Positions 26,294 to 29,759 of a DNA stretch of 64,000 nt are shown here, in pieces. The notes beneath the pieces were generated by a model, which was not told the origin of the DNA, made no database searches, and saw only the letters and a program-made list of their open reading frames with translations. The translations under genes were made by a program, and so were the position numbers. Source of the stretch: a phage; sequence record PX104378.1; one strand, written 5' to 3'. Each line of letters starts with the position of its first letter. Position 1 is the stretch's first letter.

Positions 26294-26692
26294 TTAAGCC
26301 AGTCGAGTGAGTTTATAAATTGTTTTAAAGCATAGAACTTTTATATCGTCTAAAACGCTCTGTAACGAGCTATCAACATCATTATAAATCTCACTAGCCA
26401 TTTGCGTTAACTCTTGCAAATAGGCAATTTCGCTAATCTCCTTGCGGACGACCAACGTTGGCTGATAACGACCAGTGATCCCAATATTGGTTTCAGTGAA
26501 ATTATCAACCAATTCTTGCATTTCAAGATAGAACTCTTCGAGAGCCTTATGTTTTGCATAAGATCCCGGACCAGTTACCCCAAAATGCGCAGAATGCATA
26601 TAAGTAACACTCATCAGACATTCACCGATAAAGCGGTCAACTTTATTAGCTTTCCCCTCTTCGGACGTCTTTCGAAAATCACTGAATTTCAT
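26294..26692 (-). CDS. hypothetical protein (132 aa)
   Basis: Start at ATG 26692 after GGAGAATCGAGAAC RBS. Confidence 0.4.
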   Translation of the reverse strand: MKFSDFRKTSEEGKANKVDRFIGECLMSVTYMHSAHFGVTGPGSYAKHKALEEFYLEMQELVDNFTETNIGITGRYQPTLVVRKEISEIAYLQELTQMASEIYNDVDSSLQSVLDDIKVLCFKTIYKLTRLA

Positions 26693-26981
26693 GTTCTCGA
26701 TTCTCCACATTATGCAACATAACAAATTGTTGTGCGGCATATTCCCCCATAATAAAACACTGCTTAGAATCCATACATTTACTACGAGCATACATCTTCA
26801 TAATATGTGCATGAAATTTCTGGCTGGTTTCAATGGAAGGAGATATTTTGTTTACATATACTATCATTGCACCGTCGAAATAATCAGTAAAGTCACCAGT
26901 TGGATCATATTGATCAGCACTGACACTTCCGACCGCAGTCAAGCATATTGCCGCTGTTAGAGTTTTACGAATAAATGACAT
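26679..26981 (-). CDS. hypothetical secreted protein (100 aa) with N-terminal signal peptide
   Basis: MSFIRKTLTAAICLTAVGSVSA-DQ signal-peptide-like N-terminus; TATAAATA late promoter ~34 nt upstream on minus strand. Confidence 0.5.
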   Translation of the reverse strand: MSFIRKTLTAAICLTAVGSVSADQYDPTGDFTDYFDGAMIVYVNKISPSIETSQKFHAHIMKMYARSKCMDSKQCFIMGEYAAQQFVMLHNVENREHEIQ

Positions 26982-27014
26982 AAGTCATTCCCCCAGATTG
27001 AAAATATTCAGTTA

Positions 27015-27022
27015 TATTTATA
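27015..27022 (-). promoter_or_regulatory. T4-type late promoter TATAAATA (minus strand)
   Basis: Exact TATAAATA on minus strand ~34 nt upstream of ATG 26981. Confidence 0.55.
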
Positions 27023-27049
27023 ATCTGGGGCTTTATTTATGATTAACTC

Positions 27050-27646
27050 TTAGTTGGTAGTACCGTCAATAAAATGTTTACGGCATACAGAAACATATTT
27101 ATCCTCTGCACCAACTTCTATTTGAGCACCATCGCGAATAACATTACCATCTTTATCTACACGAAGGACCATTGTTGCTTTCTTGCCACAATGACAAATA
27201 CCCTTCATTTCGACCAGTTTATCAGCAAATGCCATTAATGCCGCAGATCCTTCAAATAGATTGCCCTGAAAGTCGGTGCGAAGGCCATAGCACAGTACAG
27301 GGATATTTGCATCATCAACAAGCGCACACAAGCCTAAGACATGCTCTTTAGTCATAAATTGGGCTTCATCTACAAACACAGCATCAGGACGCCAGCGATC
27401 TGGTCTACGCTTACCTAACGATTCACGATAAACCAAATCGAAAAGATCATCCGATTTAGTGAAGGTGATCGCTGGAGCACTTAGACCAATTCGGGAAACA
27501 ACTTCACTTTCTGAATCTCGATTATCAATCGCTGGTTTAAGAATTAATACTCGCATATCACGTTCGGTATAGTTATAAGCACTTTGTAACAGGGAAGTTG
27601 ATTTGCCAGCGTTCATAGATGCATAGTAGAAGTATAGTTGTGCCAT
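27050..27646 (-). CDS. tk: thymidine kinase
   Basis: YYASMNAGKSTSLLQSAYNY..VFVDEAQF..CYGLRTDFQGNLFEGS..CHCGKKA matches T4 Tk along its length. Confidence 0.95.
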   Translation of the reverse strand: MAQLYFYYASMNAGKSTSLLQSAYNYTERDMRVLILKPAIDNRDSESEVVSRIGLSAPAITFTKSDDLFDLVYRESLGKRRPDRWRPDAVFVDEAQFMTKEHVLGLCALVDDANIPVLCYGLRTDFQGNLFEGSAALMAFADKLVEMKGICHCGKKATMVLRVDKDGNVIRDGAQIEVGAEDKYVSVCRKHFIDGTTN

Positions 27647-27939
27647 TAATTAATCTCCAAAAATCCAGCAAGACCTAAACCAACATAAACCCAGATACAA
27701 AGGAAAAAGAAGCAAACACCCATAGCAAAGATAAATCCGCGTAGTGTCTTTGGATAACCTACCCAATATTCCCGACCGTCTTCTAGCAGGATCAGCTTAT
27801 TTCCTTGAGAGTCCATATCAATTACAACATGTTTATTTCTGGATTGTAACAGATATTGCTTGACAATCTCAATACCCGCCATAATAACAATAACGAAATT
27901 AAAAGTCCACATAACAAGGTTAATGATAGTCTCAAGCAT
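27646..27939 (-). CDS. hypothetical membrane protein (97 aa)
   Basis: Two hydrophobic segments; stop overlaps tk start. Confidence 0.5.
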   Translation of the reverse strand: MLETIINLVMWTFNFVIVIMAGIEIVKQYLLQSRNKHVVIDMDSQGNKLILLEDGREYWVGYPKTLRGFIFAMGVCFFFLCIWVYVGLGLAGFLEIN

Positions 27940-28174
27940 TTTCTATCACCTCCACCCAATCAGGCGTTTCCTGAAATACTCCTTCGCCTTCGTGGTGGAT
28001 GCATCCTTTATTGCTACAATACATCCACCAATCCCACATTCCCCACGGTAAACGCTGCATATCGTCGTTACAGCAAGTGAAGATAATAGGCCAACCACAT
28101 CTAACACATCGGCAGTTTTCTTTCATGTGAGCGGTATTAGGCTTCTTCATAGATGACTCCAATATAATCGACAT
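27932..28174 (-). CDS. small Cys/Trp-rich protein (80 aa)
   Basis: CRCVRCGWPIIFTCCNDD...CSNKGCIHHEGEG suggests metal-binding. Confidence 0.4.
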   Translation of the reverse strand: MSIILESSMKKPNTAHMKENCRCVRCGWPIIFTCCNDDMQRLPWGMWDWWMYCSNKGCIHHEGEGVFQETPDWVEVIENA

Positions 28175-28341
28175 TTACATTTAGGGCAATGCGGTTCTTT
28201 AATATAATACCCGTCTGTCTTTGGAACACTAACAGGAGCGGTTTTTATATTGTATTCAGTGAAACAACGAAAACAAGTTACGTTTTCCACAGACTGACGT
28301 TTCACCCAATCACCGGAATATAGATCATTTTTATTTGTCAT
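28147..28341 (-). CDS. small zinc-ribbon protein (~64 aa)
   Basis: CFRCF..CPKCKC; internal ATG chosen to limit overlap with upstream gene. Confidence 0.4.
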   Translation of the reverse strand: MTNKNDLYSGDWVKRQSVENVTCFRCFTEYNIKTAPVSVPKTDGYYIKEPHCPKCKCRLYWSHL

Positions 28342-28786
28342 ATTCCACCACCACAATGTTAATGTCTGGAGTAGCAATATTAATGATCTCTTCTACACAT
28401 TCCCACTCAAGGCCACCGATACCGCAACCGATTTTAGGAATATAGAAAGGCTGTATAGCACCTTCAAAAACATCATTGATAGTCTCAAATCCTTTCAGGA
28501 TAGCACCATATTCAGCATTTGGACCCGGTCGGAATTGGGTATAGAGATTCAACCCGCACCAGTTATAACCATTAACTTGATGCGTCCAGACACTAAACCC
28601 ACCCAGCTTTTCTACCTTACCGCGAGAAGTTTGCTTGTCAATTTCTAACGCTTGCGGGAACTCTTTCGCGATCTTTGCAGCAATACCAGCGCCCATAGTA
28701 TGAAAACAATTACAACCATGAATTAAATGACCGTTTCCTTGTTTAAACAGGGCGATGAGATCGCCCTTTACAGTATCAATAATCAT
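28331..28786 (-). CDS. macro-domain protein, TARG1/OARD1/DarG-like (ADP-ribose processing)
   Basis: VKGDLIA..HLIHGCNCFHTMGAGIAAKIAKEF and PKIGCGIGGLEWECVEEII parallel the TARG1 signature (VKGDLFA..AHCISEDCRMGAGIA.. and PRIGCGLDRLQWENV); RBS GAGAGGTTTATATT. Confidence 0.75.
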   Translation of the reverse strand: MIIDTVKGDLIALFKQGNGHLIHGCNCFHTMGAGIAAKIAKEFPQALEIDKQTSRGKVEKLGGFSVWTHQVNGYNWCGLNLYTQFRPGPNAEYGAILKGFETINDVFEGAIQPFYIPKIGCGIGGLEWECVEEIINIATPDINIVVVEYDK

Positions 28787-28801
28787 AATATAAACCTCTC
28801 A

Positions 28802-29161
28802 TTAGTCACGGGAAGACAAACCAGCCATAAAACGGCTTAACAGAGTGTCGCGATAAGCAAAGCATAATTGCTTATCAGGGGCAGTATCACACAGGTTGCG
28901 TTTTGTTTTAGCAAAGCTGGCAATACTCAGATCCCATGCTCGATTTTTTCGTTTTTCATCTCGACCTTGTTTGTATGCCTCGTCAAGTTCAAGTGCGATA
29001 AAATCGCTACACATGTTATCATCATCACAGAAGGTTTTAATGATCTTTTTGTTGATCTCAAATCCTTTGTATTCGAACTTTGGATAAGGGCGCTCATTAC
29101 TAGCAAGAGCACCAACAGAGAACATCATAGCAATCATAGCAATTATTGTCAACTTTTTCAT
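28802..29161 (-). CDS. hypothetical secreted protein (119 aa)
   Basis: Signal-peptide-like N-terminus MKKLTIIAMIAMMFSVGALA-SN; several Cys. Confidence 0.5.
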   Translation of the reverse strand: MKKLTIIAMIAMMFSVGALASNERPYPKFEYKGFEINKKIIKTFCDDDNMCSDFIALELDEAYKQGRDEKRKNRAWDLSIASFAKTKRNLCDTAPDKQLCFAYRDTLLSRFMAGLSSRD

Positions 29162-29168
29162 ATATTCC

Positions 29169-29759
29169 TCAATAGCGTTTAGTTTTAAGAATGCCTTTAC
29201 TCTTTAGATGGTTAGCCTTTTTTAGTACGTCATCAGCATAACCTAAACCGGCTTTATAGTTCCATCCTGCATTGTAAGAAGCTAGCGCGAGTCGGATATT
29301 ACCGTTTCGAACATCCAGCCAGTATGCTAACTCATCCATCGCGTAGAATGCAGAAACCTCGCGATTCATGATAAATTTGATAGTCTGGCGATCACTCATT
29401 TTAACACCGCGCTTTGCATTTTTCGCTTTCACCGTTTTAAGGTAATTTTGAAATAATCCATAAGCATGATGATTTTTCTTTGGTGCTAAGTTTGCACCCG
29501 CGCTTGATTCTTGCCATGCGATACCCGCCAGGATGTGGCCTAAACCCTTTCCGTCATAGCGAATATTCGGATGGTCATTTTTCAACTTACCGCTTTTCTC
29601 GAATTGTTCGCCATATTGATAGGCGAAATGTAAATTATCTAGTTGGTGTGCTGTAAAGTTGTCTATCGGCGCTTTTTTGATCGGTGCGCTAGTCGATGCG
29701 TGTGTAGCACCAACGGCTAGTGACAGACTCAATACTATCGCTTTTAGAACTTTTAACAT
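29169..29759 (-). CDS. secreted lytic transglycosylase-like protein (SLT domain)
   Basis: Signal-peptide-like N-terminus; catalytic-region signature GIAWQESSAGANL...AYGLFQ typical of SLT/lysozyme-like fold. Confidence 0.7.
   Translation of the reverse strand: MLKVLKAIVLSLSLAVGATHASTSAPIKKAPIDNFTAHQLDNLHFAYQYGEQFEKSGKLKNDHPNIRYDGKGLGHILAGIAWQESSAGANLAPKKNHHAYGLFQNYLKTVKAKNAKRGVKMSDRQTIKFIMNREVSAFYAMDELAYWLDVRNGNIRLALASYNAGWNYKAGLGYADDVLKKANHLKSKGILKTKRY

Follow-up and report, generated by a model that had tools for sequence, protein, structure and literature searches.

Introduction

The closest described counterpart of the locus analysed here is the rI.1-rI-rI.-1 operon of phage T4, which has a late promoter between tk and rI.1 and an early promoter 3.3 kb upstream (PMC2962797). 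Export of T4 RI, shown with PhoA, and its cleavage after Ala24 have been demonstrated experimentally; the protein is periplasmic in its mature form only, and the A24P substitution blocks release (PMC8385771). Late promoters inside early-strand units are a standard T4 device, known from e, soc, 49 and I-TevI (PMC3014915), and for these genes a mechanism based on a hairpin that sequesters the ribosome-binding site is documented (PMC3014915; PMC2988022).

Here we analysed a 64-kb stretch of phage DNA (the window), which belongs to a Krischvirus, an RB49-like relative of T4, with DNA identities of 98.3% to UPWr_E1 and 96.7% to RB49, the latter value also covering the region of interest. Judged by sequence and gene order, three ORFs that an initial annotation had picked out as a cluster of signal-peptide proteins are the syntenic T4 genes rI, vs and vs.1, so named in RB49 and in dozens of near-identical phages. 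The cluster is thus real but ordinary, as its gene identities and the late promoter of the rI operon are already known. Two features go beyond annotation: in Krischvirus the late promoter lies inside a hairpin that holds the rI Shine-Dalgarno (SD) sequence, and the Vs family carries signal peptides together with four invariant cysteines. Taken together, we regard it as very likely that the region is a conserved T-even early-strand block with three Sec-exported products (the RI antiholin, the Vs.1 transglycosylase and Vs) and a late rI promoter set in a hairpin.

Results

Three ORFs with signal peptides in a conserved T-even block

Signal peptides were sought in all six frames of the window, with all alternative starts, by a heuristic scan rather than SignalP. 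To pass, an ORF had to have a Shine-Dalgarno sequence and a classical signal peptide and to lack any other hydrophobic segment. Exactly three ORFs do so, all on the minus strand and precisely those previously singled out for their signal-peptide-like N-termini; a looser scan also picks up six small membrane proteins with multiple TM segments, encoded elsewhere in the window. Each N-terminus has a basic n-region, an uncharged h-region of 13-19 residues and a small-x-small cleavage site: MSFIRKTLTAAICLTAVGSVSA|DQ for ORF 26679-26981, MKKLTIIAMIAMMFSVGALA|SN for ORF 28802-29161 and MLKVLKAIVLSLSLAVGATHA|ST for ORF 29169-29759. This character is retained in the homologues (34/34 for Vs, 9/9 for Vs.1 and 8/8 for RI) despite an unconserved N-terminal sequence.

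The genes of the block that concern us are as follows.

29169..29759, minus strand: vs.1, 196 aa, SLT-type lytic transglycosylase domain (PF01464, phrog_600)
28802..29161, minus strand: vs, 119 aa, labelled 'valyl-tRNA synthetase modifier' from its homology with T4 vs (phrog_1256)
27050..27646, minus strand: tk, thymidine kinase, a cytoplasmic landmark gene (PF00265, 1e-51)
26679..26981, minus strand: rI, antiholin RI, 100 aa (PF24205, phrog_1246; annotated rI in RB49 and relatives)
26294..26692, minus strand: rI.-1, DUF5856, Dps/ferritin-like (PF19174, 2.4e-20; phrog_858; annotated rI.-1 in RB49 and T4)

The order in the window, regB–vs.1–vs–tk.4–(small ORFs)–tk–rI–rI.-1, is that of T4, and rI, vs, vs.1, tk and regB carry annotations in RB49 or its relatives. 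rI.-1, which comes third in the T4 rI operon, here overlaps the rI stop by 14 nt.

RI is an antiholin with a predicted cleavable signal peptide

The product of ORF 26679-26981 matches the antiholin family PF24205 over residues 4-97 of its 100 (1e-23; 83.4 bits against a gathering cutoff of 27), the lysis-inhibition family phrog_1246 (2.5e-26) and the T4 RI chains in the PDB, 6psk/6psh (E 0.006). Its gene has the T4-type setting, downstream of tk and overlapping rI.-1 (DUF5856). Residues 1-22 (nt 26916-26981) form the predicted signal peptide, with cleavage at VSA|DQ, and leave a predicted mature periplasmic domain of ~9.2 kDa with a conserved Cys69/Cys75 pair; C69, C75 and G79, among other residues, are invariant across eight lineages. 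These matches identify the product as the RI antiholin, which would delay lysis upon superinfection. A tblastn search found no homologue of holin T in the 64-kb window; in the reference relative RB49 the annotation includes the holin gene t.

By analogy with T4, the signal peptide would direct RI into the periplasm; there its small domain, which contains a disulfide, would bind the periplasmic domain of holin T and block hole formation, so that lysis of the superinfected cell would be delayed (lysis inhibition). Could the N-terminus instead be a non-cleaved SAR domain that keeps RI tethered to the membrane until depolarisation? PMC8385771 summarises this as the previous model for T4 RI, and the h-region TLTAAICLTAVGSV is SAR-typical, being rich in Ala/Thr/Gly/Ser and weakly hydrophobic, with no 19-residue window at KD 1.6. 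T4 RI is, however, processed after Ala24, with the mature form alone periplasmic and its release blocked by A24P (PMC8385771), and the V-S-A|D site found here is nearer the AXA consensus than the I-E-A of T4. We therefore hold a SAR domain to be improbable, and favour a cleavable signal peptide.

The late promoter upstream of rI is shared among T4-like lineages

The initial annotation had placed an exact late promoter ahead of ORF 26679-26981, and this is borne out.

27015..27022, minus strand: T4-type late promoter TATAAATA, gp55-dependent, exact match

Read on the minus strand (27022..27015), the last base of TATAAATA lies 33 nt upstream of the rI ATG at 26981. The promoter stands this close to rI itself because no rI.1 intervenes between tk and rI. 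By the T4 rule, which places the late consensus at -13 to -6 (PMC1524935), transcription is predicted to start near G27009. Since T is made late and RI has a short lifetime, RI would have to be synthesised late, and a promoter directly 5' of rI would serve this need.

An 8-mer in AT-rich DNA could match by chance, in which case rI would be expressed only within the early unit. In keeping with this, TATAAATA is not enriched, occurring 4 times in the window versus 6.8 expected, and an exact copy upstream of rI is missing from two of the eight independent T4-like lineages compared, Aeromonas 60AhydR15PP and Acinetobacter 133. The remaining 6/8 have it just 5' of rI or rI.1, at the same syntenic position (T4, Serratia 4S, Enterobacter fGh-Ecl04, Morganella MP1, Klebsiella PMBT1 and all sampled Krischvirus), against a chance of ~0.018 per lineage for a 330-nt one-strand interval, by arithmetic from the window expectation. 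Moreover, the T4 promoter at the corresponding position is published (PMC2962797), the octamer is invariant in Krischvirus although the spacer around it diverges in JK32, and the variant late consensus of some T4-like phages (PMC1524935) can account for the two negative lineages. A chance match is thus very improbable, and we equate TATAAATA, on sequence and position, with the late promoter known from the T4 rI operon. Late expression of a periplasmic protein from the early region is not the anomaly that had been suggested, given the published T4 precedent (PMC2962797) and the standing of the device in T4 (PMC3014915).

Upstream of the whole unit, the spacer between regB and vs.1 holds one further promoter-like site.

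29794..29822, minus strand: sigma-70-type promoter-like site TTGACT-17-TATTAT (consensus scan, 10/12)

This site lies within a 15-bp hairpin (z = -2.7) and could serve as early promoter of the vs.1...rI unit; its distance to the late promoter is 2.8 kb, compared with 3.3 kb in the T4 rI operon (PMC2962797).

The late promoter lies within a hairpin that holds the rI Shine-Dalgarno sequence

Two RNA hairpins are predicted between tk and the start of rI.

26991..27030, minus strand: RNA hairpin of the tk-rI spacer, with 5' arm CCCCAGAUU (27030..27022) and 3' arm AAUCUGGGG (26999..26991)
26973..26990, minus strand: second small hairpin, GAAUGAC-UUAU-GUCAUUU, a folding prediction, whose loop exposes the A and U of the rI start codon AUG

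The late promoter and the transcription start predicted from it both fall in the 22-nt loop of the first hairpin, whose 3' arm overlaps the rI SD, GGGGG (26994..26990). The 101-nt rI leader has an MFE of -27.2 kcal/mol (z = -5.9), and 0/200 shuffles are equally stable. Both stems of this hairpin are invariant in seven Krischvirus genomes, with substitutions limited to the loop and flanks; these include JK32, whose RI is 77% identical and whose leader adopts the same fold (z = -5.0). The stems show no compensatory changes, and their invariance could also come from constraint on the SD and on the bases that flank the promoter. G2248 has a T to C change in the loop of the second hairpin, which is otherwise conserved across the aligned Krischvirus.

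No terminator was found in the tk-rI spacer, which is our sole ground for assuming early read-through into rI. In early transcripts that start at upstream promoters and read through, the hairpin would form and rI would be poorly translated, whereas late transcripts would begin in the loop, lack the 5' arm and allow rI translation; in the modelled RNAs the probability that the SD is unpaired is 0.02 in the read-through transcript and 0.22 in that from 27009. The arrangement suggests that late transcripts account for most RI translation in Krischvirus. The difference is perhaps modest, since the SD of the late transcript is still only ~22% unpaired and the hairpin at the AUG, which would form in early and late transcripts alike, persists. 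Comparable structures at the rI locus were found in neither T4 nor Morganella MP1. In Serratia 4S, fGh-Ecl04 and PMBT1 an intrinsic terminator immediately precedes the same late promoter, a different route to late-only rI expression. We found no literature description of a hairpin switch at rI; the review PMC3014915 names e, soc, 49 and I-TevI only.

The hairpin might serve other ends than a translational switch, as a 3'-end or stability element of the tk mRNA, a processing site, or a pause site or weak terminator that insulates rI. The true terminators at the same position in related lineages point in this direction, as do the missing covariation for pairing with the SD specifically, the largely paired SD of the modelled late transcript and the similar promoter-embedding hairpin between regB and vs.1, which touches no SD. 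Nevertheless, no U-run follows the stem, which therefore is not an intrinsic terminator; its 3' arm coincides exactly with the sole SD-like sequence, 8 nt before the rI AUG; and the promoter in the loop means that late transcripts lose the 5' arm, which matches the documented e and I-TevI design. On balance we consider a role other than switching somewhat unlikely, and retain translational control by the hairpin as our working interpretation.

Vs.1 is a predicted exported lytic transglycosylase

The SLT domain ascribed to ORF 29169-29759 is recovered above the Pfam threshold (PF01464; 25.9 bits, cutoff 21.3), and the protein matches phrog_600 at 3.5e-60. Its predicted signal peptide comprises residues 1-21 (THA|ST), leaving a mature part of ~19.7 kDa. 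Across seven genera E84-S85, G101..Q104 and Y162-N163-x-G165 are invariant; we take these ES, G-x-x-Q and (A/S)-Y-N-x-G elements to be the SLT signature motifs, with Glu-Ser catalytic. Homologues occur in 2084 phage records, and all nine homologues inspected (9/9), Ounavirinae and Ackermannviridae included, have a signal-peptide-like N-terminus. With its catalytic motifs intact, Vs.1 is thus predicted to be an exported lytic transglycosylase of SLT type, which most likely would cleave or remodel peptidoglycan in the periplasm of the infected cell, accessory to the true endolysin.

The initial annotation, which proposed superinfection exclusion or control of lysis and peptidoglycan for these proteins, is partly supported, and missed that the ORFs are named T4 genes: lysis or peptidoglycan control fits two of the three (the antiholin RI and the predicted transglycosylase Vs.1), and nothing was found that points to superinfection exclusion proper.

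Vs is probably an exported, disulfide-bonded protein

Vs matches phrog_1256 at 1.3e-33 and aligns with T4 Vs; the family is also covered by PF26829, and the gene is annotated vs in RB49. It lies directly downstream of vs.1, and the two genes are adjacent in 6/7 genera examined. Residues 1-20 form the predicted signal peptide (ALA|SN), followed by an all-alpha mature part of ~11.6 kDa with four invariant cysteines (45, 51, 91 and 100). The signal peptide and the four cysteines recur in 34/34 family members and in seven phage genera, and the fGh-Ecl04 protein carries a lipobox, LSGC. An AF2 model has four helices, with pLDDT 86-94 over residues 50-119; the fold gave no significant PDB match. Vs is therefore probably an exported four-helix protein with disulfide bonds, as judged from these sequence features.

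How does this accord with the annotation, by which Vs would be a cytoplasmic modifier of the host valyl-tRNA synthetase (ValRS), its N-terminus being no export signal or only a partial pool being exported? Vs is homologous to the T4 vs ORF, and a passage in PMC8076793 citing Muller and Marchin 1975/1977 describes T4 vs as ValRS-binding. Deletion of vs causes a defect specific to minimal medium, compatible with a role in translation or amino-acid metabolism (bioRxiv 10.1101/2025.11.20.689424). The predicted mature T4 Vs has a mass of 11.0 kDa. The tau factor is ~10 kDa, a size close to this value. Against these points, ValRS binding needs a cytoplasmic location, and Vs is predicted to be exported: the signal peptide stays canonical in all 34 diverse members even as its sequence drifts, the variable spacing of the four invariant cysteines suggests disulfides rather than a zinc site, and one lineage has a lipobox. 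The gene is, moreover, embedded between that of Vs.1, itself predicted to be exported, and other genes of the same block, and we found no evidence in the literature tying the Vs ORF to the genetically defined vs locus. A cytoplasmic ValRS modifier is a real possibility, if not the one that we favour; the label itself is doubtful, fitting poorly with family-wide signal peptides and four cysteines, and export of Vs remains our preferred reading.

Comparison with known systems

Vs resembles T4 Vs (the tau factor) in family (phrog_1256), in size and in its position immediately downstream of vs.1, whereas the export and disulfides predicted for the whole family conflict with the cytoplasmic target implied by the inherited label. 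For Vs.1 the nearest likeness is Kayvirus Tgl (PMC7150955), a phage protein of lytic-transglycosylase type with a signal peptide, encoded apart from the main endolysin; it is Sec-exported and has an early-type promoter that host RNA polymerase can transcribe, as is probably so for Vs.1. Tgl differs in its Gram-positive host and IsaA/SceD-like domain, and the likeness is one of protein type, export signal and setting, with the activity of Vs.1 a predicted one.

The T4 rI operon and its RI–T lysis inhibition offer the closest match: RI is homologous (PF24205) and has a signal peptide and a Cys pair, tk lies upstream and an overlapping rI.-1 downstream, and the late promoter directly follows tk; a T-type holin is encoded by the reference relative RB49. 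The present locus departs from it in that rI.1 is missing between tk and rI, RI is only ~22% identical to T4 RI, and the promoter is enclosed by an SD-sequestering hairpin that T4 does not have at rI. In this last respect it resembles T4 e, soc, 49 and I-TevI, with an unmasking of the SD that at rI is predicted to be partial: TATAAATA is placed such that late transcripts would miss the 5' arm of the hairpin that pairs with the SD in longer early transcripts and, as with the T4 lysozyme gene e, the gene that would be regulated is one of lysis control.

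A cluster of predicted exported proteins around tk

Coding runs on the minus strand throughout this part of the window, where three ORF products begin with a basic n-region, an uncharged h-region of 13-19 residues and a small-x-small site, and have hydrophilic mature parts:

26679-26981, minus strand: rI, N-terminus MSFIRKTLTAAICLTAVGSVSA, predicted cleavage before DQ
28802-29161, minus strand: vs, N-terminus MKKLTIIAMIAMMFSVGALA, predicted cleavage before SN
29169-29759, minus strand: vs.1, N-terminus MLKVLKAIVLSLSLAVGATHA, predicted cleavage before ST

Signal peptides were called by a purpose-written heuristic in two versions. 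The loose one picked up eight ORFs in the window, of which six encode small multi-TM membrane proteins; the strict one demanded a classical signal peptide, a Shine-Dalgarno (SD) sequence and no other hydrophobic segment, and was applied to the 64 kb in six frames with every alternative start codon. Only rI, vs and vs.1 passed the strict scan; therefore the cluster is real and no chance scatter, and the three signal-peptide-like ORFs lie where the initial annotation had placed them.

The genes themselves are already known. Over the 4.2 kb around the cluster, identity is 98.3% with Escherichia phage UPWr_E1 and 96.7% with RB49 (Krischvirus). The RB49 annotation names the three ORFs rI, vs and vs.1, and its gene order reads regB–vs.1–vs–tk.4–three small ORFs–tk–rI–rI.-1; T4 is arranged alike except that it carries rI.1 between tk and rI. 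The rI ORF matches Pfam Antiholin (PF24205, 83 bits, cutoff 27), a PHROG for 'lysis inhibition' and the crystallised T4 antiholin (6psk, 6psh), vs matches phrog_1256 ('valyl tRNA synthetase modifier'), and vs.1 matches Pfam SLT (PF01464, 25.9 bits, cutoff 21.3) and phrog_600. By profile, the neighbours are TK, a macro domain protein, two phage zinc-binding ORFs, RegB and DUF5856/rI.-1, and a word-index protein search and an IMG/VR single-sequence scan returned near-identical relatives only. Little is gained here for genome annotation, as the three are syntenic genes annotated in near-identical genomes and the late promoter of the T4 rI operon is published. Also inside the cluster span, a 97-aa ORF (27646-27939, minus strand) overlaps the tk start; it is an integral membrane protein (phrog_16027; hydrophobic segments at residues 1-19 and 64-82), not of the signal-peptide type, and T4 lacks a counterpart at the same position.

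The export signals recur among relatives. Across the syntenic region of T4, Serratia 4S, Enterobacter fGh-Ecl04, Morganella MP1, Aeromonas 60AhydR15PP, Acinetobacter 133 and Klebsiella PMBT1, every homologue of RI, Vs and Vs.1 in the seven phages has a signal-peptide-like start; the sequence of that segment is itself not conserved. Mature RI keeps two Cys residues invariant across homologues. Experiments on T4 RI showed cleavage after Ala24, a periplasmic pool made up of the mature form only, and export of PhoA by the signal peptide, data that superseded an older SAR-domain (signal-anchor-release) model (PMC8385771). The initial suggestion that such periplasmic proteins control lysis or peptidoglycan applies to two of the three, RI being an antiholin and Vs.1 an SLT protein; the third is Vs.

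Vs.1, a predicted accessory enzyme

Conserved among the Vs.1 homologues of the phages compared are E84-S85, G101-x-x-Q104 and Y162-N163-x-G165, which correspond to the ES, GxxQ and YNxG signature motifs of family-1 lytic transglycosylases. Homologues were found by tblastn in 2084 phage records, including Felix-O1-like and ViI-like phages, in which the signal peptide is kept; a profile search of PDB sequences yielded no hit with an E of 0.01 or less. A 2006 publication had already pointed out that vs.1 resembles SLT proteins (PMC1524935). Vs.1 is most likely an accessory periplasmic peptidoglycan-cleaving enzyme; in function, the nearest analogue we found is Tgl of Kayvirus, a lytic transglycosylase that is exported, is expressed from an early-type promoter and supports the main endolysin (PMC7150955). 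A role for Vs.1 as the endolysin of this phage was rejected, as an M15-type peptidase (33017-33406) matches an endolysin PHROG; gene e is absent from RB49-type phages (PMC3014915). Four small hydrophobic ORFs (33435-34210) come after the peptidase ORF (minus strand, phrog_465 endolysin family), and 37213-38164 (minus strand) contains a further four small membrane ORFs in a row; all eight belong to PHROGs of unknown function that are confined to this phage group.

A partnership of Vs with Vs.1 was considered because vs lies next to vs.1 in 6 of 7 genera, with an 8-nt overlap in T4. The notion that Vs is an obligate partner or inhibitor was downgraded, given that Vs.1 homologues with signal peptides occur without a Vs-like neighbour in Ounavirinae and Ackermannviridae, and it is further weakened by the separation of vs and vs.1 in PMBT1.

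Predicted location of Vs and its inherited name

All 34 diverse Vs members recovered from a large protein collection have a signal peptide and four invariant Cys residues, whose spacing varies (C-x5/6/10-C and C-x8/10-C); the Vs of Enterobacter fGh-Ecl04 carries a lipobox, LSGC. An AlphaFold model based on the 34 homologues has a disordered linker (residues 17-35) and a four-helix mature domain, with a pLDDT of 86-94 over residues 50-119. Compared with the PDB, this model had no significant structural neighbour (best E 2.5), viral models returned its own family only, and scanning Pfam with all 34 members at E up to 1 produced noise only; a DUF1311 structure was a weak match (E 5.6) and was not taken as evidence. 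The signal peptide, the Cys residues and the lipobox variant all point to Vs as a predicted exported, disulfide-bonded protein.

Assignment of the vs ORF is reportedly owed to Valerie in 1986 and to Muller and Marchin in 1975, and the label 'valyl-tRNA synthetase modifier' now stands on the family in hundreds of T4-like genomes. Work cited in PMC8076793 describes T4 vs as a binder of the cytoplasmic valyl-tRNA synthetase. Export as predicted from sequence is hard to reconcile with this inherited annotation, and the documented conflict between predicted location and name is a small novelty of the present analysis: a predicted exported, Cys-rich family puts a 50-year-old, automatically propagated label in question. 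The question is of current interest: in a recent transposon screen, described in a preprint, vs was the most important T4 gene for growth in minimal medium, where it was the most depleted; the same preprint calls the role of the modification unknown (bioRxiv 10.1101/2025.11.20.689424). We tentatively entertain, as somewhat less probable than its opposite, that the family is a Sec-exported, disulfide-bonded periplasmic factor, a lipoprotein in some lineages, acting in the envelope alongside Vs.1. If Vs is exported, the classical ValRS-modifying tau factor would be encoded elsewhere or the 1980s ORF assignment would be wrong, and the minimal-medium defect of T4 vs would reflect an envelope function, not translation.

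A late promoter upstream of rI

The initial annotation had reported an exact late promoter motif ahead of the 26679-26981 ORF, and it is indeed present:

27022..27015, minus strand: exact TATAAATA, T4-type late promoter motif, last base 33 nt upstream of the rI ATG

Exact copies in the window are no more frequent than chance predicts (4 observed, 6.8 expected). It lies ~25-35 nt before the rI start codon in the window, RB49, JK32 and PMBT1, and at this distance before the start of the rI.1-like ORF preceding rI in T4, 4S, fGh-Ecl04 and MP1, the T4 copy falling in its own tk-rI.1 spacer. Among the fetched loci, only those of the Aeromonas and Acinetobacter phages lack an exact motif at this site; some members of these groups have variant late consensus sequences (PMC1524935). 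From the window expectation, the chance of an exact motif in a 330-nt one-strand interval is ~0.018 per lineage, and six of eight independent lineages are positive; the recurrence is therefore far beyond chance. A late-expressed periplasmic protein encoded in the early region is not the oddity it was first taken for: in T4, the rI.1-rI-rI.-1 operon has a published late promoter between tk and rI.1 besides an early promoter 3.3 kb upstream (PMC2962797), which is textbook T4 biology. The late promoter is biologically sensible because the target of RI, holin T, is a late protein. RB49 encodes holin T; none was found in the 64-kb window.

A second exact motif on the early strand lies at 37221..37214 (minus strand), where a small membrane ORF has its stop codon. 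The ~170 nt after 37214 contain no convincing ORF and several hairpins (MFE -61 kcal/mol, z = -3.3). A strong intrinsic terminator, GCCACUCUUCGGAGUGGCUUUUUU, closes this stretch (37030-37221, minus strand) and is followed by a sigma-70-like promoter; the stretch had no match to Rfam, tRNA or tmRNA and is a candidate late-expressed small RNA.

A hairpin around the rI late promoter

Within the 68-nt tk–rI spacer, a 9-bp G+C-rich hairpin (26991-27030; 5' and 3' arms CCCCAGAUU / AAUCUGGGG) surrounds the motif, which starts at the final base of the 5' arm and extends into the loop. The 101-nt leader folds with an MFE of -27.2 kcal/mol (z = -5.9; equally stable shuffles, 0/200). As the T4 late motif occupies -13 to -6 (PMC1524935), the late start is predicted near G27009, within the loop. 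The 3' arm overlaps the sole SD-like sequence of rI (GGGGG, 8 nt before the AUG), and the modelled probability that this SD is unpaired is 0.02 in the read-through transcript against 0.22 in the 27009-start transcript, in which residual SD pairing is weak. The fold models also place the rI AUG in the loop of a second small hairpin in both transcript types.

In an alignment of seven Krischvirus, neither the stem arms nor the promoter vary, and the loop has substitutions and an indel. The stems and promoter are still invariant in JK32, where RI is only 77% identical and the upstream spacer has diverged, and its leader adopts the same fold (z = -5.0). An Rfam scan of 26-38 kb found no known RNA families. 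On the fold models, the hairpin is likely an SD-sequestering translational switch; we grade it as likely, not proven, because covariation is absent, the stems being invariant in all Krischvirus sampled, and the arms are perhaps conserved for their promoter and SD roles.

Another hairpin, of 15 bp (z = -2.7), occupies the regB–vs.1 spacer (29760-29844, minus strand) and embeds a sigma-70-like promoter, TTGACT-17-TATTAT (29822..29794, minus strand); here too the promoter is inside, but unlike at rI the vs.1 SD is left uncovered. A 722-aa ORF (24126-26294, minus strand) has an ATGA start overlapping the rI.-1 stop, so it would share the rI late-promoter transcript. Its C-terminal region is Ig-like and weakly resembles 'Hoc-like head decoration' (phrog_1149, 1.5e-9), with Pfam Ig_3 below threshold; the ORF is full-length in only ~6/59 Krischvirus records and absent from RB49.

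Probable insulation of rI and known late-promoter hairpins

In Serratia 4S, Karamvirus fGh-Ecl04 and Slopekvirus PMBT1, an intrinsic terminator with a G+C-rich stem and a U-run directly precedes the same late promoter (coordinates of the fetched loci):

L004 4215-4240: terminator abutting the rI/rI.1-unit late promoter, Serratia 4S
L005 4192-4210: terminator abutting the rI/rI.1-unit late promoter, Enterobacter fGh-Ecl04
L009 4330-4352: terminator abutting the rI/rI.1-unit late promoter, Klebsiella PMBT1

This terminator-type insulation differs from the probable SD-sequestering hairpin of Krischvirus, and T4 and Morganella MP1 have neither a hairpin equivalent nor a terminator at the late promoter. 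With a hairpin in Krischvirus and a terminator in three genera, rI would thus be restricted to late times by differing means in several lineages. That rI may have been insulated from early expression independently in different T4-like lineages could be useful; it underlines antiholin production alongside the late holin, a point of modest interest to T4 specialists.

The combination of late promoter and hairpin is documented for T4 e, soc, 49, I-TevI and segB and for Aeh1 mobE, genes whose early read-through RNA is translationally silent and whose late RNA is active (PMC3014915, PMC2988022); rI is not among the genes given there for this architecture. The Krischvirus rI hairpin, with its embedded late promoter, shares that architecture, and its small novelty is that it is probably another example of the late-promoter-in-hairpin switch, here on rI.
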